Positions 19,090 to 56,637 are shown, counted from the first letter of the stretch. The stretch is DNA of 64,000 nt from Dictyostelium discoideum (GCA_000004695.1 CM000153.2:2880001-2944000), one strand, 5' to 3'. Notes: generated by a model from the sequence alone, not told the origin. A program made the numbers and translations.

Positions 19090-19129
<40 letters not shown>

Positions 19130-20311: not shown

Positions 20312-22292
20312 ATTTTATTTTTAAAAAAAAAAAAAAAAAAAAAATTATTATTATTATTATTATTATAGATATTTTAATTATAGATCAACAATATATCTTG
20401 TTCAAGAAGGTTTTTATAATTTTTTAAATTGGTTTGATGAAAGAGCATGGTATCCATTAGGACGTATTGTAGGTGGTACAATTTACCCAGGTTTAATGGC
20501 AACAGCAAGTTTAGTTCATTGGTCATTGAATTCATTGAATATTACAGTTAATATTAGAAATGTATGTGTATTGTTATCACCATGGTTTGCATCAAATACA
20601 GCAATGGTAACCTATAAATTTGCCAAAGAAGTTAAGGATACACAAACTGGTTTGGTTGCAGCAGCCATGATTGCAATTGTTCCAGGTTATATTTCACGTT
20701 CAGTAGCAGGTTCATTCGATAATGAAGGTATTGCAATCTTTGCATTGATTTTCACATATTATTGTTGGATTAAGTCAGTAAACACAGGCTCATTGATGTG
20801 GGCTGCCATCTGTTCATTGGCCTACTTTTATATGGCAAGTGCCTGGGGTGGTTATGTATTCATCATTAATTTAATCCCATTGCATGCCTTTTTCTTGCTT
20901 TTGACAGGCCGTTATTCACATCGTCTCTACATAGCCTACAGCACAATGTTTGTCATTGGTACAATCCTCTCTATGCAAATTACATTCATTAGTTTCCAAC
21001 CAGTTCAATCATCTGAACATTTGGCTGCCATTGGTATCTTTGGTCTCCTCCAATTGTACGCTGGTTTGTCATGGGTAAAGAGTCACCTCACCAATGAAGC
21101 CTTCAAGAAACTTCAACGTTTGACAGTGTTATTCGTTTTATCTTGTGCTGCTGCCGTACTTGTCGTTGGTACATTAACTGGTTACATCTCACCATTCAAT
21201 GGTCGTTTCTATTCATTGTTGGATCCAACCTATGCTCGTGACCACATTCCAATCATTGCATCAGTATCAGAGCATCAACCAACCACTTGGGCATCATACT
21301 TTTTCGATCTCCATATCTTGGTATTCCTTTTCCCAGCCGGTTTATACTTTTGTTTCCAAAAATTAACCGATGCTAATATTTTCCTCATTCTCTACGGTGT
21401 CACCTCCATTTATTTCTCTGGTGTAATGGTACGTCTTATGTTGGTTTTAGCACCAGTTGCATGTATTTTAGCCGCCGTTGCCGTCAGTGCAACCCTCACC
21501 ACCTATATGAAGAAGTTAAAGGCTCCATCATCACCAAGTGATGCTAATAATTCCAAAGAGAGTGGTGGTGTTATGGTTGCAGTCTTAACTGTTCTTTTAA
21601 TTCTCTACGCTTTCCATTGTACTTGGGTCACTAGTGAAGCCTACTCATCTCCATCCATTGTACTCTCTGCCAAACAAAACGATGGTAGTCGTGTGATTTT
21701 CGATGATTTCCGTGAAGCCTACCGTTGGATTGGTCAAAATACTGCCGACGACGCTCGTATTATGTCTTGGTGGGATTATGGTTATCAATTATCTGCAATG
21801 GCCAATCGTACCGTATTGGTTGATAATAACACTTGGAACAATAGTCATATCGCTCAAGTTGGTAAAGCATTTGCATCCACTGAAGAAGATGCTTACATAC
21901 AAATGAAAGCATTGGATGTCGATTATGTTTTAGTTATTTTTGGTGGTTTAACTGGTTACAGTTCTGATGATATCAATAAATTCCTTTGGATGGTTAGAAT
22001 TGGTGGTAGTTGTGATCCAAATATTAAAGAACAAGATTATCTCACCAATGGTCAATATAGAATAGATAAAGGTGCCTCACCAACAATGTTAAATTCTCTC
22101 ATGTACAAACTTAGTTACTATCGTTTCTCTGAAGTTCACACTGACTATCAAAGACCAACAGGTTTCGATCGTGTAAGAAATGTTGAAATTGGTAATAAAA
22201 ATTTCGATTTAACTTATTTAGAAGAAGCTTTCACATCTGTTCATTGGTTAGTTAGAGTTTATAAAGTTAAAGATTTTGATAATAGAGCTTAA
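19851..22292 (+). CDS. stt3: STT3, catalytic subunit of oligosaccharyltransferase. join(19851..20071,20369..22292).
   Basis: Very strong match to STT3 throughout: EFDP|YFNYR across the intron, WWDYGYQ, DNNTWNN, the C-terminal KVKDFDNR. Donor cc|GTAAGT (phase 2), acceptor tattatAG at 20368. Confidence 0.9.
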
Positions 22293-24290: not shown

Positions 24291-24505
24291 AGTTATGACC
24301 AAACTCTTAGGATCATTTCTAGAGTATCGTCTATTAAAATTATTCATCAATAATTTTTCCTCTTTCACAGCTAGGATGATGATATACACTCACTACACGA
24401 AAGCGTGAAACCGTTATTATCGAATGATTCATTTATTCTTTATTAACATTGATGACCGTCTAATTCAGGGATGAATTGGTTGTGTGGTGGGATTCGTACT
24501 GGCTC
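24291..24505 (+). ncRNA. U3: U3 small nucleolar RNA (box C/D), copy A.
   Basis: 5' region …CTTAGGATCATTTCTAGAGTATCG is the U3 box A/A' (compare the human GGATCATTTCTATAGT). Also present: box C' GGATGATGA, box B-like AGCGTGAAACCG, box C TTGATGACC, and a 3' end followed by a T-run. Same 215-nt sequence in 4 copies. Confidence 0.75.
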
Positions 24506-33005: not shown

Positions 33006-34361
33006 TTAAAATGGTTCAATTGATAATAATTTTTTACCTAAATCCGATAAATGAGGTGGTGAATAGTTAACGGTTTCTAAATTTGAAAATTTTTTAGCAA
33101 CATAACTTGGATGTTTTCCAGTTTGATACCAAATTTTTTGAGCCTCTGCGTATTGAATATTTATAGGTACCATTGGTAAATGAGCGGCATAAACCACCTC
33201 TCTAATTGATGGACCGATATGAATTGTATCATTACAATGTGGCATTCTCCAATCCCAAAATAAAACATCACCTCTTTCAATTGGAATATACTTTAATTGA
33301 TCAATTATATCTAAATGTTGACCATCTTGAAAATCATATGCATTACCTCTTTTTAAAATTTCTGTTGGTATTGGTGTTGGTATTTGATGGTCAGATGATG
33401 ATGATGATTGTTGTTGTTGCTGTAATTGAGATTTATGTTGATTAAAATATTTTACACATTTCTTATGAAATTTAGGTATTGTCCAAAAACCACCTTGACC
33501 AGGTTTTGGTGTATCAGTGCAACTAATGAATGCTTGAATTGGTTGCCAAAATCTTAAAGGAATATGTTCAATTTGTTTATCTTTATTTAAATGTTCACCT
33601 CTAAATAAATGAAATGGGTTACAATCTAAATGTAAACCTGTACCTTTTTGAAGTTTAATTTGTTGTTCTATAACTTTATTATTATTATTACTATTACAAT
33701 TACTATTACCATTACCATTACTATCTTCAATGATTGTTGGTATTCTAAAACCACATCTATTTACAAACATAAACATATGTTGTGGATCAAATTCACCATA
33801 TTCATTTGGCCATTCATTTTCATCGTTATAGGATAGATCTAAATCATCTTTGGTGATTGGTGTTGTTGAATAAGTTGATTGGAATAGTTGAACAAAACTA
33901 TCGTATAGATTTTTATCTTCTCTAATTTTATATTCATATTTACCATGATAAAAATTAACCATACCTCCGAATCCATTTGAAACATTTCCCATCTTTAACT
34001 CTTGTTTCCATAATAATTCAGACTCTTGAATTGAACCAATTGTTGTATTACCAAAATCAATGGATGCATTATTCTTTAAATATTCTCTAACTTCAATTTG
34101 ATGATTAGTTAATAATCTATCATCAATTAATTTGCTTTTAACTACAACATATCCATTTTCATTGAAATGTTCTATTTCTTCTTTTGTCAATGGTCCTTTA
34201 TATACAGGTTTCATCATACTATTATCTTGAAATTCCATTGTCGATGTTGGTACTATATTAAATGGTTTACTTAATGTTGTCATTGTTGATAAACCTAAAT
34301 TATTATTATTATTGTAACCACCATTAAATAATTTTTTTGTAATATTTTTAATTTTTAACAT
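33006..34361 (-). CDS. PhyH-like (phytanoyl-CoA dioxygenase superfamily / DUF1479-like) Fe(II)/2OG oxygenase, 451 aa.
   Basis: N-terminal LTKEEIEHFNENGYVVVKSKL is typical of PhyH. HLDCNPFH (HxD). Downstream His in TIHIGPS. Poly-Q/S insert. Confidence 0.5.
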   Translation of the reverse strand: MLKIKNITKKLFNGGYNNNNNLGLSTMTTLSKPFNIVPTSTMEFQDNSMMKPVYKGPLTKEEIEHFNENGYVVVKSKLIDDRLLTNHQIEVREYLKNNASIDFGNTTIGSIQESELLWKQELKMGNVSNGFGGMVNFYHGKYEYKIREDKNLYDSFVQLFQSTYSTTPITKDDLDLSYNDENEWPNEYGEFDPQHMFMFVNRCGFRIPTIIEDSNGNGNSNCNSNNNNKVIEQQIKLQKGTGLHLDCNPFHLFRGEHLNKDKQIEHIPLRFWQPIQAFISCTDTPKPGQGGFWTIPKFHKKCVKYFNQHKSQLQQQQQSSSSSDHQIPTPIPTEILKRGNAYDFQDGQHLDIIDQLKYIPIERGDVLFWDWRMPHCNDTIHIGPSIREVVYAAHLPMVPINIQYAEAQKIWYQTGKHPSYVAKKFSNLETVNYSPPHLSDLGKKLLSIEPF

Positions 34362-34770
34362 TATATATAGATATCATTTGTAAATTAAAAATTATAATAT
34401 TAATATTAGTAATGAAACAATAAAAAATAAATGAAAATATAAAAATTTTTTTTTTTTTTTTTTCTTTTTTTTTTTTGTCTCATTATTAAAATAAAAAAAA
34501 AATTAAATTTTAAAAAAAAAAAAATCTTTTTGAACAAATAGTTTGTTTTAAACTTCTGAAGGAAAATCTTTATTTGATGTTTATGGTGAAAAAATTACGC
34601 ACTTAAGCCAAAATTAAAATAAAAAAAAATTAAAAAAAATAAAAAAAAATTAAAAAATAAAAATAAAATCTTTATTTGGTGTTTATGAAAAAAAAAATTA
34701 AAAAAAATAAAATTAAAATAGTAATAATAATTAAATTGTTTTATTATATATTAATTTTGAAATTATATGT

Positions 34771-34973
34771 TTCAATGTGTATTTGATGGGTTTTTTTATA
34801 TTTAATGATGGAATATAGGCTTGAGTGAATAGTATCAGACTCTTATTAGGGAAAAGTCAGATGTGGAAACTGCCTAGGTTTTTTCTCTGCAAACGAAATC
34901 TAAACTCACTAAAGATGGAATCCCTAATGAATCGGATTGAAATCCGAATGCAAGATCTTTTCATAACTTTTAA
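34771..34973 (+). repeat. ~200-bp GC-richer element, copy 1 of 2 near-identical direct copies (candidate ncRNA gene or small TE terminal repeat).
   Basis: Identical to 35388..35592 apart from a few indels. Contains GGGAAAAGTCAGATG (eukaryotic RNase P/MRP CR-I-like) and a terminal hairpin TCGGATT-GAA-ATCCGA followed by a T-tract. Confidence 0.4.
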
Positions 34974-35334
34974 AATTCAATTCAATTACACTTAAATTAT
35001 AGTTACATATAGTGGATATGTTATGGGAATAAAAAAAAAAAATGAAAATTTTTTTTTTTTATTTTTTTTTCGTTTTTTTTTTCGTTTTTTTTTTTTTCAA
35101 AATTAATAATAAATTAAGGGGGTCACATAGAAAATAAAAAAATAAAAAAGATGACAAACCCACCATCACACTGCATAAAATTACTTTTCACTTTAATGCT
35201 GAAATTATTACATCCAACCCTTATGATAGTGTAATAGTATTTTAAAGTTTGGAAAAACAGTGAAGGTTATGAATTTTATTTACAGTTTTTAAAATATTTT
35301 ATAATTTTTTTTTTTTTTTAAATTTAATAAAGAA

Positions 35335-35592
35335 ATATTGGCCGTAGTGAATAGTACCTGACTCTTATAAGAGAAAAACCATATGTTTTCAATGTGTATT
35401 TGATGGGTTTTTTTTTATATTTAATGATGGAATATAGGCTTGAGTGAATAGTATCAGACTCTTATTAGGGAAAAGTCAGATGTGGAAACTGCCTAGGTTT
35501 TTTCTCTGCAAACGAAATCTAAACTCACTAAAGATGGAATCCCTAATGAATCGGATTGAAATCCGAATGCAAGATCTTTTCATAACTTTAAA
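35335..35592 (+). repeat. Copy 2 of the ~200-bp element (35388..35592), preceded by a 50-bp partial third copy (35335..35385).
   Basis: See copy 1. The partial copy …GGCCGTAGTGAATAGTACCTGACTCTTATAAGAG matches the internal segment GGCTTGAGTGAATAGTATCAGACTCTTATTAGGG. Confidence 0.4.
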
Positions 35593-35676
35593 AAATAATT
35601 TCAACTTTTGCTAAACTAATGTTTTGTCCAAACACTTGTTATGGGTTTTACAAAACTTTTCATTTTTTCATTTTTC

Positions 35677-35744
<68 letters not shown>

Positions 35745-35966: not shown

Positions 35967-37295
35967 GTGAATAAGCAATTTGTTTATAAAATGAGTGATA
36001 TATTTATTGGTGTAATGTCAGGTACATCATTGGATGGTATTGATGTTGTAATTGTTGAATTTAATGATAATGATGATGATATAAAAAGAATAAATGTTAA
36101 ACAAAGTTATTCACATCCAATGCCAATTAATATAAAGAATGATATATTATCAATGTGTCAAGGTCAAAAAACTACATTATCAGAAGTTGGTAATTTAAAT
36201 AGAAGATTAGGTATAGTTTATTCAGAAGCAATAAATGAAGCAATAAAGTTATCATCAATTGATCCAAATTCAATTTCAGCAATTGGATGTCATGGTCAAA
36301 CTGTTTGGCATCAACCACCAACCAGAAAACATGGTGATGATGGTGATAATGATGATAATGATGATGATAATGATGGATTTACAATTCAATTAGGTGATTG
36401 TAATAGAATTGCAACATTAACTGGTATAACTACAATTGGTGATTTTAGAAATAGAGATATTTCATATGGTGGACAAGGTGCACCATTAACACCATCATTT
36501 CATAAATATTCATTATCAAGTTTCAATGAAAATAGAATCATTTTAAATATTGGTGGAATTTCTAATATAACTTTATTACCATCATTATCATCATCATCAT
36601 CATCATCAAATAATATTCAAGTTACAGGATTTGATACAGGAGCAGGTAATATTTTATTAGATAGTTGGATTCAATTAAAAAAGGATGGTACACCATATGA
36701 TAAAGATGGTGAATGGGCAAATCAAGGAAATGTAAATGAAAAACTTTTAAAATCATTATATGATCATAGTGATTCATTTTTAAATAAATTACCACCAAAA
36801 TCAACTGGTCGTGAATTGTTTAATATTCAATGGTTATTAAATGTAATTGAATCAATTAAAAATGATGATGATGATAATGATAATGATAATATTATTATAA
36901 AAGATGAAGATGTTCAAGCAACACTATTAGAATTTACATGTAAAACAATAGTTGATGAAATTAAAAAAATTAAAATTTGTAAAATTGATAGAGTTTTAGT
37001 TTGTGGAGGTGGTAGTAAAAATAAATTATTAATGGATAAACTTTCTAGATTATTAAAAAAAGATGAAAATGAAAATGGATGTGGTGGTAGTGTTAGTAGC
37101 GGTAGTAGTGGTAGTTGTAAACTTTCAATAACTGATGAATTTGGTATCAGTAGTCAAGATATGGAGGCAATTGCATTTGCATGGTTTGCAAAAAGAACTT
37201 TAAATAATCAACCTTCAAATTTAATAAGTGTGACTGGTGCTTCAAAAGAAACAATCTTGGGTGCAATTTATTTAAAAAATAATTTTAATAATTGA
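35967..37295 (+). CDS. anmK: Anhydro-N-acetylmuramic acid kinase (AnmK) homolog, bacterial type. Real start probably the ATG at 35991. Single exon, ~434 aa.
   Basis: Collinear with bacterial AnmK along its whole length: GVMSGTSLDGIDVV, AIGCHGQTVWH, GITTIGDFRNRDIS.GGQGAPL, NIGGISN, GFDTG.GN, PPKSTGRELFN, VCGGGSKN, DMEAIAFAWFA, SVTGAS. Interrupted by poly-D/N and poly-S low-complexity inserts typical of this genome. Confidence 0.85.
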   Translation: MNKQFVYKMSDIFIGVMSGTSLDGIDVVIVEFNDNDDDIKRINVKQSYSHPMPINIKNDILSMCQGQKTTLSEVGNLNRRLGIVYSEAINEAIKLSSIDPNSISAIGCHGQTVWHQPPTRKHGDDGDNDDNDDDNDGFTIQLGDCNRIATLTGITTIGDFRNRDISYGGQGAPLTPSFHKYSLSSFNENRIILNIGGISNITLLPSLSSSSSSSNNIQVTGFDTGAGNILLDSWIQLKKDGTPYDKDGEWANQGNVNEKLLKSLYDHSDSFLNKLPPKSTGRELFNIQWLLNVIESIKNDDDDNDNDNIIIKDEDVQATLLEFTCKTIVDEIKKIKICKIDRVLVCGGGSKNKLLMDKLSRLLKKDENENGCGGSVSSGSSGSCKLSITDEFGISSQDMEAIAFAWFAKRTLNNQPSNLISVTGASKETILGAIYLKNNFNN

Positions 37296-42880: not shown

Positions 42881-45800
42881 ACAAACACAAATGGTAATAA
42901 TAATAATAATAATAATAATGAAATTGAAACATTAACAAAAGAAGAAGAATTAGAAAAAGAAAAAGAAATACAAAGATTAAGAGATTTACAAAAACCAATA
43001 ATTTATAAGAGTTGTATACCAGCAAGTGTTGAAAATATTAAAGGTTTACCAGAGGCTATTCATTCTATAAATGAGAGAGAAATGAAAATTCAAGCAAAAG
43101 TGATAACACGTATTGATGAATTGAAGGAGATACCAACTCATTATTTACCAACTGATGTTAGAATTAGATCAGAGATTGAGAGTAAACAATTGAAACTATT
43201 GGAATTACAAAGAAAACTTCGTAATGATGTATCGTTAGAGATGGAGGATCAAGTATTGATACGTTCAATTCAAAACAATAGCAAGGGATATGATGACAAT
43301 GATTACAATCTCTACGTACGTTCAATTCCACGTTTAATCAATAGACCTATCGATCAAACTAGTTCAATCTACGATACTACTACAACTCAATTACCAGAGA
43401 GTATATTGGTGACAAATAAAAAGAAATTCTTGGAAGCAATTGCAATTCATGCAAGAGATTTCAAAGTGTTTCATAGTAACAATGAGAAATTTCTTCGTCA
43501 AAATGTTATCAAAGCAATACATCGTTATCATAAAGAGAAAGAAAAGAGAGAGATTGAACGTTTATCAAAGGAACGTATTCGTTTACTTAAAGCACGTGAT
43601 ACCGAAGGTTATAGAGATCTTTTAGCAAAAACAAAGAATGAACGTTTAGAAATGCTTTTAGGTGAAACTGATTCCCTCTTAAGTAGTATTCATCAATTAA
43701 TGGAAAAAGAACAAACTGAAAAAAGAGCACGTGAATTAGAAGAAGAATTAAAACAAAATGAAGAACAATTAAATGATCATAATGGTACAAATACTAATAA
43801 CAACAATACCACCACCACTACCACCACTACTTCTACTACAACATCAACATCATTATCAAATGAAGGTCAACCAATTGCAAATATAACTTCACCACTCCAA
43901 TCAACTACAACTATTTTAGCAAAGAAATCAAATAATTTAGTGATTGAACAACCAGATCTTATGACTGGTGGTAAATTAAAAGAATATCAAGTAACTGGTT
44001 TAGAATGGTTAATTTCATTGTATACACGTAATTTAAATGGTATTTTAGCCGATGAAATGGGTCTTGGTAAAACTGTACAAACCATTGCATTCATTTCATT
44101 CCTTTATGAACGTATGAATGTTAGAGAGCCATTCTTGGTAGTAGCACCATTGTCAACCATTAGTAATTGGGTATCAGAGTTTGCACGTTGGTCACCAAAA
44201 CTTCATGTGATCGTTTACAAGGGTAAACAAGATGAGAGAAGAGAGACAGCAAGAACCATACCAAGGAATGCATTTTGTGTAGTTATCACCTCTTTTGAAT
44301 ATATCATAAAGGATAGAAAAACATTGGGTAGGGTTCATTGGATCTATATTATCATTGATGAAGGTCATCGTATCAAAAATAAAAATAGTAAACTCTCTGT
44401 ACAATTACGTCAATATCATAGTAGAAATAGATTACTACTCACAGGTACACCATTACAAAATGATTTGGGTGAGTTGTGGGCATTGTTAAACTTTTTGTTA
44501 CCAACTATTTTCAATTCAGCTGATACTTTCCAAAATTGGTTCAATGCACCATTCCAAGCAAAGGGTAAGAATTTAATCAATGTCAACGAAGAGGAGTCTT
44601 TGATCATTATCAATCGTCTCCATCAAGTTTTAAGATTTTTCTTATTACGTCGTTTGAAATCAGATGTAGAGAGCCAACTTCCAGACAAGAAGGAAAAAGT
44701 TATCAAATGTAATATGAGTGCACTTCAAATTGCAATGTATAGATCATTGGTAGAGTATGGTGTACTCCCAATCGATCCAGATTCAAAGGAGGGTAGAAGT
44801 GGAAGATTGAAAATGAAAGGTTTCAATAATATCGTTAAACAACTTCAAAAGATTTGCAATCATCCTTACCTCTTTAAAGATGAATGGGATATCAATGAGG
44901 ATCTCATTAGAACCAGTGGTAAATTCGATACTATGGACCAAATTCTAACGAAAATGCATGCCTCCAAACATCGTGTTCTCATTTTCACTCAAATGACAGA
45001 GGTTATCAATCTAATGGAGGAGTATTTCTCTTTGAAAGAATGGACTTTTCTTCGTTTGGATGGTTCAACTAAACCAGAGGAACGTGCTCATTTGGTTGTC
45101 GAATGGAATCGTCCTGATTCACCATTTTGGATTTTCGTACTCTCAACTCATGCCGGTGGTTTAGGTATGAATTTACAAACTGCCGATACTGTAATCATTT
45201 TCGATTCCGATTGGAATCCACAAATGGATCTTCAAGCTCAAGATAGATGTCATCGTATTGGTCAAACTAATTCTGTGTCGGTGTTTCGTTTAATCTCTGC
45301 CAACTCTATCGAAGAGAAAATTCTAGGTAGAGCCACCGATAAATTGGAGATCGATGCAAAGATTATTCAAGCCGGTATGTTTAACACTCATTCCAACGAT
45401 CAAGAAAGACGTGCAAAATTGGAACAATTCCTTCATGGTTTCCCCAATAATACTTTGGATGAAGTACCAGTGGATCTAAAGGAAATCAATAAATTGATTG
45501 CTCGTGATGACTTTGAATTCAAACAATTCCAAGAGATGGATAAAGAACGTTTGAAAGTGGATCAAGCAAATTCAAAGAAAACTAGACAACCAATTAAACC
45601 ACGTCTAATGATCGAAAAAGAATTACCTGAATGGGTTTTGGCAACTCCTGTCACCGATAAGGATGAAGATATCGCTGGTAAGAAACGTTCAACCGCCATT
45701 GCTTCTGCCAATAGTTTTGTTCATGATAATTTAACCGATAATCAATATGCTAGAATGATTGAAAAGAATATGACCTTTGAACAGTATAAAGCTCATTTAG

Positions 45801-46921
45801 AGGCAAAGAAATTAAAGAATGGCAAATCTAAAAAAGATGGTGAGAAAAGTAAAAAGAAAAAAGGTAAAAGTAGAGGTAGAAAGAATAAATCTGATGATGA
45901 AGACTCTTCCGATGATGAACTTGATGATGAAGGTATTTCATCTGATGATGATGATAATAATATTAATAATAATAATAATAATAATGATAATAATAATAAA
46001 AACAATAATAATAATGATGATGAAGAAACTGGTGCTATTCAAAAACAAATCGTTGAACGTCGTCGTGCTACCCCTCAACAACGTAAACAACAACGTCAAC
46101 AACAACAAGAAAAACAAAATCATGAAAATAATAGTGATAATGAAAATCAAGATGATATTATTCAAGTTGATGATCATCCAACTAATGGTATTGAAAATAG
46201 TAGTAACAATAATAATAATGATGATAATAATAGTAATGGTAATAGTAATCAACAACAACAACAACAACAATCCAATAATGGTGAAACACCAACACCTGCT
46301 AAAAAAGGTAGAGGTAGACCAAGATTATCAAATAATCCAACTCCAATTAAAAGAAAATTAGATGATCTTAAGGGTAAATCTGATGATAGTCCAAAACCAT
46401 CAAAGAAATCTTTAATGTCTGAAACAGAAACGAGTGACAACGAACAATCAATGGATTCTGGTGATAATAGTAATAATAATAATAATAATAATAACAGTAA
46501 TAATAATAATAATAACAATGAAAAAAATAATAATAGTAATGGTGAACCAAGTGAAAATGGTAGTCAAGAAAATGTAAATGGTAATGGTAATGTGGCTTCT
46601 ACTGCTGCAACAAATGGTACATCAGTTCATACTCCAGGTAAAAGAGGTAGAAAGAAGAAGATTAGACCAAACCCTGAAGATGAAGAAAAGGATAAAGATA
46701 AAGAAAATGAAAATGAAAATGAAAATGAAAAGGAAAAGGGAAATGAAAAAGATAAGGATCCAACTTCAACCACTTCTCCTACCACAACTACCACTTCAAC
46801 TTCAGCAGGCACTTCTTCTGGTTCATCATCATCAGTTTTAAATACCCCACTTTCTCCTGAATCTCCTTTTACAACTAGATCAGGTAGAACAAGATTTCCA
46901 AAAAATTCAACTGAACAATAA
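41850..46921 (+). CDS. SNF2-family chromatin-remodelling ATPase (SWI2/SNF2-Brahma-like). join(41850..41877,41994..42085,42197..46921), ~1614 aa.
   Basis: HSA-like region (FLEAIAIHARDFKVFH…). SNF2_N motifs LADEMGLGKTVQTIAF and DEGHRIKN. Helicase-C block LDGSTKPEERA…QAQDRCHRIGQ. SnAC-like segment. C-terminal AT-hooks (GRGRPR, KRGRKKK). Two small 5' exons join in frame (GTAAGA..AG, GTAAGC..AG). Confidence 0.85.
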
Positions 46922-47112
46922 AATAACACCAACCATGTTAATCCAAACAAAAAAACAAAAAAAAAAAAAATATTTAAAAAAAAAAAATAAAAAAAAAAAT
47001 TAAAAATATCTATTTTCGTTCATTTTTTTCATTTCATTCGTTCGTTTTTTCATTTTATTTCGTTTTTTTATTTTTATTTTTATTTTTTTTTATCAAATTT
47101 CATTTTACAATA

Positions 47113-47172: not shown

Positions 47173-47387
47173 AGTTATGACCAAACTCTTAGGATCATTT
47201 CTAGAGTATCGTCTATTAAAATTATTCATCAATAATTTTTCCTCTTTCACAGCTAGGATGATGATATACACTCACTACACGAAAGCGTGAAACCGTTATT
47301 ATCGAATGATTCATTTATTCTTTATTAATATTGATGACCGTCTAATTCAGGGATGAATTGGTTGTGTGGTGGGATTCGTACTGGCTC
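47173..47387 (+). ncRNA. U3: U3 snoRNA, copy B.
   Basis: Same 215-nt sequence as copy A. Confidence 0.75.
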
Positions 47388-51643: not shown

Positions 51644-51858
51644 AGTTATGACCAAACTCTTAGGATCATTTCTAGAGTATCGTCTATTAAAATTATTCAT
51701 CAATAATTTTTCCTCTTTCACAGCTAGGATGATGATACACACTCACTACACGAAAGCGTGAAACCGTTATTATCGAATGATTCATTTATTCTTTATTAAT
51801 ATTGATGACCGTCTAATTCAGGGATGAATTGGTTGTGTGGTGGGATTCGTACTGGCTC
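51644..51858 (+). ncRNA. U3: U3 snoRNA, copy C.
   Basis: Same sequence as the other copies. Confidence 0.75.
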
Positions 51859-56422: not shown

Positions 56423-56637
56423 AGTTATGACCAAACTCTTAGGATCATTTCTAGAGTATCGTCTATTAAAATTATTCATCAATAATTTTTCCTCTTTCAC
56501 AGCTAGGATGATGATACACACTCACTACACGAAAGCGTGAAACCGTTATTATCGAATGATTCATTTATTCTTTATTAACATTGATGACCGTCTAATTCAG
56601 GGATGAATTGGTTGTGTGGTGGGATTCGTACTGGCTC
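56423..56637 (+). ncRNA. U3: U3 snoRNA, copy D.
   Basis: Same sequence as the other copies. Confidence 0.75.

Follow-up and report, generated by a model that had tools for sequence, protein, structure and literature searches.

Two near-identical stretches of DNA, lying between two divergent protein-coding genes of Dictyostelium discoideum, raise the question of what they encode and from which strand. Their surroundings are AT-rich Dictyostelium DNA (21% GC) in a 64-kb segment, here called the window, which is the whole stretch that was analysed. An earlier note on this DNA had proposed a candidate unannotated noncoding RNA (ncRNA) gene pair or, alternatively, a miniature transposable element. 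The first proposal holds and is strengthened by conservation in five genomes; judged from sequence comparison, the gene discovery is solid. The two copies very probably form a functional pair of RNA genes that are driven by the DUSE promoter element and transcribed from the minus strand. They are probably dictyostelid snRNA-type small RNA genes, with a snoRNA as their product. The class to which this RNA belongs is the second question treated here.

Genomic setting of the duplicated element

The repeats occupy the intergenic region between a Gig2-like gene and an AnmK-like gene, which are divergent (Table 1). The exact sequence of the 451-aa Gig2-like protein is present on RNA-seq-derived contigs, and its D. 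purpureum orthologue is 59% identical. The duplication itself is real. There are two direct copies of ~210 bp each, with gap-free identity across 34791-34970 and 35410-35589. A run of T residues (T7 in one, T9 in the other) is the sole difference between them, and when that indel is allowed the match reaches ~34765-34973 and 35382-35592. The element had been described as GC-richer than its surroundings, and the RNA bodies defined below indeed have a GC content of 36.8% vs 15.2% in the remaining intergenic region.

A partial copy of ~76 nt adjoins copy 2, as had been noticed (~79% identity; nhmmer E=1.2e-9). Searches for further copies, including nhmmer, found none in the 64-kb window and ~136 kb of related loci. 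A tRNA/tmRNA scan gave no hits.

Promoter elements and the transcribed strand

Published work on the Dictyostelium upstream sequence element (DUSE) puts it ~60-63 nt ahead of the transcription start site, whether an ncRNA gene is read by Pol II or by Pol III. The element is needed for expression, and Class I genes that lack a correctly spaced DUSE are unexpressed (PMC3188802, PMC7919456). The element had been said to have no DUSE. A regular-expression scan of both strands of the 64-kb window for the pattern [AT]CCCA[CT]AA overturns that statement. The pattern has 8 matches only, and six of them sit 63-64 nt before the start of a U3 gene or of a candidate copy. Four of these precede the U3 snoRNA genes, also four, that Rfam detects in the window (RF00012, 86-89 bits), and the other two belong to the candidate copies, here named d and p (Table 1). 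Placement of these DUSE matches by chance is excluded.

In each copy, the DUSE lies 63-64 nt upstream of a minus-strand context in which AAAGTT is directly followed by ATGAAAAGATC. Alignment of the promoters with those of the four U3 genes gives equal spacing from DUSE to start and a common block, ATTGAA[A/T]TTTAAAAGTT, directly followed by ATGA, so that the first four transcribed nucleotides, AUGA, are common to the candidate and the U3 genes. The RNA start of both copies is placed on the basis of this U3-identical DUSE spacing together with the AAAGTT-ATGA context. The hexamer AAAGTT is invariant in 10/10 copies and is found as well in U3 genes, in T. lacteum as in D. discoideum; the CCCATAA core of the DUSE is invariant in the same ten copies, which come from five genomes.

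Given the DUSE spacing and the start context shared with U3, the minus strand is therefore taken as the transcribed strand, and not the plus strand that had been assumed. The locus would thus hold two tandem genes, each with a promoter of its own, that both encode a single small and stable ncRNA of ~147-154 nt acting in trans. Transcription would be carried out by the snRNA-type machinery that uses the DUSE.

Table 1. Features of the locus, in window coordinates. RNA nucleotide n of copy d corresponds to window position 34965-n.
Feature	Position	Strand	Remarks
Gig2-like gene	33006-34361	minus	product 451 aa
AnmK-like gene	35991-37295	plus	
RNA gene copy d	34811..34964	minus	adjoins Gig2-like gene; predicted start 34964 (A of AUGAAAAG)
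3' end of copy d	between ~34818 and 34811	minus	RNA nt 147-154; predicted
RNA gene copy p	35430..35583	minus	adjoins AnmK gene; body identical to copy d
DUSE of copy d, TCCCATAA	35021..35028	minus	first base at -64
DUSE of copy p, ACCCATAA	35639..35646	minus	first base at -63
Proximal promoter block of copy d, ending in TTTTAAAAGTT	34965..34977	minus	-13 to -1
Proximal promoter block of copy p	35584-35596	minus	equivalent of the copy d block
3' trailer (...AUCAUUAAAUAU) and A-run, copy d	34791..34810	minus	78% conserved; resembles U3 3' flank
3' trailer equivalent, copy p	35408-35429	minus	
Perfect 6-bp hairpin, UCGGAU-UUCA-AUCCGA	34932..34947	minus	RNA nt 18-33; UUCA loop; in 5' domain
Hinge hexamer, A[G/C]AGAA	34883..34888	minus	RNA nt 77-82; fits H-box consensus ANANNA
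3' hairpin	34817..34875	minus	RNA nt 90-148; predicted fold
A[U/C]A, possible ACA box	34814..34816	minus	RNA nt 149-151; directly after 3' hairpin
Putative relic 3' half of ancestral p-type gene	35311..35386	minus	RNA nt ~101-159 and trailer; directly 3' of copy p

Conservation and concerted evolution

Syntenic loci were reached via the AnmK-like orthologues of D. firmibasis, D. citrinum and two D. cf. discoideum isolates. In all five genomes the order is the same, with a Gig2-like gene, two minus-strand copies and AnmK, and every one of the ten copies has AAAGTT directly before a start of the form ATGAAAAG together with an equally spaced DUSE. An alignment of the ten copies, spanning -85 to +230, reveals a conserved block from -6 to ~+155. 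Between species, identity is 98% for RNA nt 1-80, 88% for nt 81-155 and 78% for nt 156-175, and it falls to ~40% in the DNA beyond +176. On the promoter side, the proximal block from -13 to -1 is 82-88% identical, and the 47-nt promoter spacer ~55%.

The relationship between the two copies is of a different kind. When copies of the same genome are compared, their bodies are 95-100% identical and their spacers only ~51%, and between species the spacers are orthologous, d with d and p with p. This makes the duplication an old one, in which gene conversion has homogenised the copies across the transcribed block. The pattern indicates that gene conversion is confined to the transcribed block, as in other multi-copy small-RNA genes. 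By the same comparisons, the block is under strong purifying selection, combined with concerted evolution inside each genome.

The partial copy can be understood within this history. It matches the proximal copy of D. cf. discoideum isolate Y across that copy's 3' half at ~96% identity, and the identity continues into the flank. The alignment indicates that, in the strain from which the window derives, a d-type copy overwrote the 5' part of the old p-type gene and left its 3' half as a relic. The junction of this overwriting is a microhomology, ACAT[A/C]TG.

Protein coding offers no account of the conservation. The statement that the element has no ORF is loosely correct; ORFs of 35-56 aa are present. 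Coding potential is rejected because these short ORFs are not conserved: in the 35-aa ORF that begins at +1, all substitutions are non-synonymous, and frameshifts or loss of the stop occur between species. When the spurious ORFs were looked up by exact match among assembled transcript contigs, none was on record. Searches with blastn and nhmmer --max for homologues of the RNA covered two loci of D. purpureum as well as loci of P. violaceum and T. lacteum, all of them syntenic or flanking, and found none; exact 30-31-mers gave no hits in two metagenome scans.

Predicted structure of the RNA

The predicted fold has three parts: a 5' domain that is invariant, a hinge rich in A and a hairpin on the 3' side. 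The 5' domain (nt 1-80) is invariant except at three positions. It contains the perfect hairpin that reads TCGGAT-TGAA-ATCCGA in the window, a feature that had been correctly recognised but taken as terminal; on the minus strand it belongs to the 5' part of the RNA. Two folds of the domain, a branched fold that retains the perfect hairpin and a long irregular hairpin, are predicted at -17.7 vs -18.1 kcal/mol, a difference of 0.4 kcal/mol, and there is no covariation in this region. The hinge hexamer has a single variable column, which coincides with an N position of ANANNA, and the hinge also contains AGAA[A/U]A at nt 79-84; the hinge is A-rich, and such matches discriminate little.

In the predicted 3' hairpin, the lower stem has 4+3 bp and a bulge of 3 nt. 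Above it is an internal loop, UUCCAC on one strand and ACUAUUC on the other, that is invariant in the ten copies. The upper stem of 10-11 bp and the apical loop differ among species, with pairing always kept: the stem changes comprise one GC to AU pair and four one-sided changes to or from G-U, and the upper stem of D. citrinum is a register-shifted version. The same architecture is predicted independently in 8/8 distinct sequences, and alifold also gives the hairpin; the succession of hairpin, hinge, hairpin and tail is likewise obtained both by alifold and in single-sequence folds. The triplet A[U/C]A that follows is AUA in 8/10 copies and ACA in both D. firmibasis copies. Near-invariance stops at nt ~155, which is 3-4 nt past the triplet and 7-8 nt beyond the hairpin (UAUAUUCC).

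Taken over 154 nt, the fold has z=-2.1 relative to dinucleotide shuffles. The covariation test was not significant, with one double change that does not exceed the shuffle control, in copies whose mean identity is 94% and in which one helix varies. The candidate structure is a prediction consistent with these data. Within it, the invariant single-stranded parts of the RNA, which are the 5' leader and both strands of the internal loop, would act by base-pairing, and the likeliest target would be (pre-)ribosomal RNA.

Relation to U3 and other known small RNAs

The candidate genes resemble the U3 genes in their layout around the RNA body. It has a DUSE at -63 or -64, the common proximal block and the AUGA start, an A/U-rich trailer that leads to an A-run ~20 nt beyond the RNA, and multiple copies with concerted evolution. 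In D. discoideum and the distant T. lacteum alike, U3 genes have the AAAGTT-ATGACC start and a 3' flank of the form TCTTTTTT(T)AATTAA.TTAATGAAAA. In contrast, the body of the candidate is unrelated to U3. Its local alignment score is 12 vs a shuffle mean of 13±2, nhmmer finds no similarity, and at ~150 nt it is shorter than the 209 nt of U3. It also lacks UGAUGA (box C/C'/B) and the A/A' boxes. Identity with U3 is accordingly rejected, since RF00012 gives no match at E<=10, UGAUGA is absent and the score equals that of shuffles. An intermolecular duplex between the candidate and U3 was predicted to be no better than those of shuffles.

The genomic slot adds to this relationship. In D. purpureum, the syntenic position, which precedes the Gig2-like gene, is occupied by a true U3 gene that has a DUSE and the same orientation; at the corresponding position of P. 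violaceum and T. lacteum there is no RNA gene. Either a specialised cassette is common to both RNAs, or one small-RNA gene was swapped for another after the split from D. purpureum. A replacement in either direction between U3 and the candidate would agree with the loci compared.

Other known families are likewise without a counterpart here. Rfam 15, run on both strands of 34700-35700, gave no match at E<=10, and at gathering thresholds nothing was found at the element in the window or in six related loci. Within the reach of the models, several readings are therefore excluded: RNase P or MRP RNA, U3, SRP RNA, Class I RNA and the Sm-class spliceosomal snRNAs. Dictyostelium-specific models were among those that failed to match for the last three. 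With Class I RNAs (RF01414), the candidate shares a predicted dependence on the DUSE, an apparent restriction to dictyostelids, small size and multiple copies. Class I RNAs, however, are 42-65 nt long, and the candidate has neither this length nor their short terminal stem nor their conserved 11-nt motif. A box C/D snoRNA, which bears box C (RUGAUGA) and box D (CUGA) near its termini, is rejected because UGAUGA is missing and the two CUGA strings are unconserved; in D. citrinum and D. firmibasis they become CAUA/CUAG and UUGA. A complementarity of nt 129-141 to the branch-site-recognition region of U2, in the U2 sequence that we presume to apply, was judged to be due to chance, as the adjoining hairpin, which would also need to pair with U2, varies among species.

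Class of the RNA

The succession of a hairpin, an ANANNA hinge, a second hairpin and A[U/C]A tentatively suggests a box H/ACA-type snoRNA, an assignment that we regard as possible rather than probable. In its favour, the candidate is ~150 nt long and is predicted to have a 5' hairpin domain, a single-stranded hinge and, in its 3' hairpin, an internal loop of 6/7 nt, with an ANA triplet directly behind that hairpin. As in an H/ACA guide pocket, both strands of the loop are invariant, in contrast to an upper stem that varies but stays paired, and the two putative boxes vary only at their degenerate positions. The ACA box of the class lies 3 nt from the RNA's 3' end, and the point at which near-invariance stops, 3-4 nt past the triplet, also fits. 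In this mechanism, the RNA would be packaged as an H/ACA RNP with dyskerin/Cbf5, Nop10, Nhp2 and Gar1. The explanation taken as a whole, mechanism included, is offered with the same reserve as the class assignment.

Several details differ from the canonical class. The triplet is mostly AUA and not ACA. The top of the loop is 17 nt from the box, compared with 14-16 nt; leaving the 3-nt bulge out of the count brings the distance to 14 nt. An open pocket is lacking in the 5' hairpin, whose upper stem ends 14-16 nt from the hinge box; one of the 5'-domain folds leaves 7 nt from the hairpin to the H box. Furthermore, no Rfam H/ACA family matches the candidate. Each H/ACA feature is thus weak alone: hardly any hinge so rich in A would be without ANANNA, the triplet is AUA in most copies, the spacing is 17 nt and a family match is lacking. 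The literature records one H/ACA snoRNA only in D. discoideum; the class is therefore under-annotated in that organism.

With about even probability, the same gene pair, on the same strand and with the same promoter, encodes an undescribed, lineage-specific class of snRNA/snoRNA-type RNA that ends at nt ~147-150, directly after the hairpin, and uses a U3-type cassette. Its start context matches that of the U3 genes, as does the spacing of the trailer: the distance from the mature end to the A-run is 21-24 nt in U3, and that from the hairpin-closing GCC to the A-run in the candidate is 14-23 nt, mostly 19-20 nt. By this analogy, nt ~147-150 could be the site of the mature 3' end, and the ACA tail would then be lost. 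A new class would also fit the true U3 gene in the D. purpureum slot (Rfam 86 bits), the silence of Rfam for RNAs of any class, the restricted distribution among the loci examined, where D. purpureum, P. violaceum and T. lacteum have no homologue, and the point-by-point weakness of the H/ACA boxes. What it accommodates less readily is the arrangement of hairpin, hinge, hairpin and tail with a conserved loop and variable stem, which is typical of an H/ACA guide, and the continuation of near-invariance well past the hairpin.

A more specific form of the H/ACA reading can be drawn from snR30/U17, which is an essential H/ACA snoRNA for 18S processing. Like that RNA, the candidate is predicted to be independently transcribed, to have a 5' hairpin that lacks a pocket and to carry an internal loop in its 3' hairpin, and it is located among genes of an SSU-processome snoRNA, U3. 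The invariant loop would specify a target of the form 5'-...UAGU-U-N-GUGGA-3'. Such a site would fit helix 34 of 18S rRNA, whose universal sequence we take to be UUAGUUGGUGGAG, in a 4+6-bp match that is not significant alone. In snR30/U17, the 5' hairpin is without a pocket, and the motifs m1 (AUAUUCCUA) and m2 (AAACCAU) lie on opposite strands of the 3'-hairpin internal loop, by the lower stem (PMC7601244). The loop strands of the candidate, AGUUUCCAC and ACUAUUCACU, contain neither. An m1-like string, AUAUUCC[A/U/C]U, is found in the tail of 9/10 copies and not in the loop, and an m2-like string is sporadic and confined to non-conserved downstream DNA. With m1 and m2 absent from the internal loop, membership in the snR30/U17 family is rejected. 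It is unlikely, though worth stating, that the RNA is a ribosome-biogenesis snoRNA that has gone unrecognised in the D. discoideum clade and that took over the U3 cassette, with the promoter, AUGA start and 3' trailer of U3 kept around a new body, at a slot where D. purpureum still has U3. In the strongest version, it would be the dictyostelid functional counterpart of snR30/U17, which is universally essential, with diverged rRNA-binding motifs.

Explanations other than a minus-strand RNA gene

One copy has been overwritten in the window strain with a relic left behind, and the element lies in a divergent intergenic region. The conserved blocks might instead be cis-regulatory DNA of the flanking genes, or decaying U3-derived pseudogenes without RNA function. 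This is improbable. Regulatory or decaying DNA does not account for a 155-nt block of 88-98% identity with sharp edges, beginning at the DUSE-defined start, or for two copies per genome homogenised by gene conversion. The body is no more like U3 than are shuffled sequences, and the Gig2-like mRNA contigs end ~340 nt before gene d.

A still smaller probability attaches to the opposite strand and to a Pol III-type ncRNA, related to RNase P or MRP RNA, that would end there in the hairpin and T-tract to which the earlier note had pointed. The plus strand does carry the hairpin followed by TCTTTTC, and loose look-alikes of box A, box B and the U2 branch-site region may be picked out by eye. The T-tract as a terminator is nevertheless a T4 run on the non-transcribed strand, in the place where the minus-strand RNA would have its 5' end (AUGAAAAGA onward), before the 5' hairpin. 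In RNase P and MRP RNA, conserved CR-I and CR-V form P4. The string likened to the CR-I box exists (GGGAAAAGTCAGATG at 34849-34863), but it is antisense to the predicted RNA and falls in its most variable segment, which reads CAUCUGACUUUUCCC in the window, CAUCAUAUUCUUCUU in D. citrinum and CAUCUAGCUUUUCUU in D. firmibasis. The resemblance to RNase P and MRP RNA finds no support from the models, which together with those for U2 give no match at E<=10 on either strand. Upstream of a plus-strand RNA there is neither a DUSE nor a conserved block, that side falling to 40% identity, while the conserved promoter elements occupy the opposite side and orientation. The plus-strand fold, moreover, has z=-0.6.

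The proposal of a mini-transposon or a pair of solo-LTR-like ends, suggested by direct repeats around ~410 bp and a partial third copy, is effectively refuted: there are no target-site duplications, the copies are syntenic in five genomes with orthologous spacers, no other copies were found in the window or the ~136 kb of related loci, and the partial copy is explained as the relic of an older p-type gene.

Significance for Dictyostelium small RNAs

Neither the searchable literature nor the D. discoideum snoRNA paper's supplement contained the sequence strings of the candidate. The RNA may already be recorded as an unnamed candidate, for example in a de novo GC-content screen for Dictyostelium ncRNA from 2008, reportedly that of Larsson. 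In recent dictyostelid genome annotations, ncRNA genes are assigned by Rfam models only. Annotation of this kind is blind to the candidate RNA, and the small-RNA catalogue of the model organism D. discoideum is thin.

Because nt 1-80 have been kept at such high identity amid scrambled neutral DNA, with two copies retained under a U3 cassette, the candidate RNA is very likely to be functionally important. The locus is a clean example of concerted evolution restricted to a transcribed block, and it may exemplify the replacement of one small-RNA gene by another in a fixed genomic slot.

U3 Genes and Other Small-RNA Signals

Four U3 snoRNA genes lie in the window, with Rfam scores of 86–89 bits. 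All four carry the Dictyostelium upstream sequence element (DUSE, [AT]CCCA[CT]AA) at −63/−64 and match one another exactly in their 3′ flank, TCTTTTTT(T)AATTAATTTAATGAAAAAAAA. The ~4.5–4.8 kb spacing of the last three suggests a unit repeated in tandem. The U3 genes of D. discoideum share both the start context, AAAGTT directly preceding ATGACC, and the 3′-flank motif TCTTTTTTAATTAAATTAATGAAAA with those of the distant T. lacteum; D. purpureum retains ...AATTAATGAAAAAAAAAA. The motif looks like a conserved 3′-end formation or termination signal of this gene type.

Locations of RNA genes, the m1-like string, and the AnmK-like gene
Feature	Location	Strand	Remarks
U3 snoRNA gene	window 24295–24503	+	Rfam
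U3 snoRNA gene	window 47177–47385	+	Rfam
U3 snoRNA gene	window 51648–51856	+	Rfam
U3 snoRNA gene	window 56427–56635	+	Rfam
U3 gene	L007 19262–19478	−	T. lacteum locus
U3 gene	L005 9429–9637	+	D. purpureum locus
Class I RNA gene	L007 17681–17740	+	Rfam RF01414, 47 bits; T. lacteum locus
AUAUUCC[A/U/C]U	RNA nt 149–157, window 34808–34816 (copy d)	−	equivalent in copy p
AnmK-like gene	window 35991–37295	+	anhydro-N-acetylmuramic acid kinase

In T. lacteum, a Class I RNA gene is found ~1.5 kb from a U3 gene. Two additional DUSE consensus matches in the window, at 19129 (+) and 39073 (+), are probably due to chance because homopolymer or AT-rich DNA follows them, with no GC-richer RNA-like body.

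The m1-like String

The tail of the candidate RNA holds a string, AUAUUCC[A/U/C]U, with 1–2 mismatches to the snR30/U17 m1 motif, AUAUUCCUA, in eight of the ten gene copies from five genomes; D. firmibasis copy d has three mismatches, and the D. citrinum string equals the C. elegans variant AUAUUCCUU. The string lies past the 3′ hairpin and outside that hairpin's internal loop, the place of m1 in snR30/U17.

Flanking DNA

A non-coding block (34488–34669) with ~80% conservation in D. citrinum (L009 6587–6774, the related locus) lies between RNA gene d and the point, ~34467, where the Gig2-like mRNA apparently starts; it contains a 32-nt direct repeat (34563–34594 and 34665–34696). The block may be the promoter of the Gig2-like gene. 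Elsewhere, GC content is markedly above the window average of 21% at 21001–22000 (40%) and 43001–47000 (29–35%). The AnmK-like gene has dictyostelid orthologues; since its next-best matches are Enterobacterales AnmK (~47% identity), sequence comparison suggests an old horizontal transfer from bacteria to Dictyostelia.
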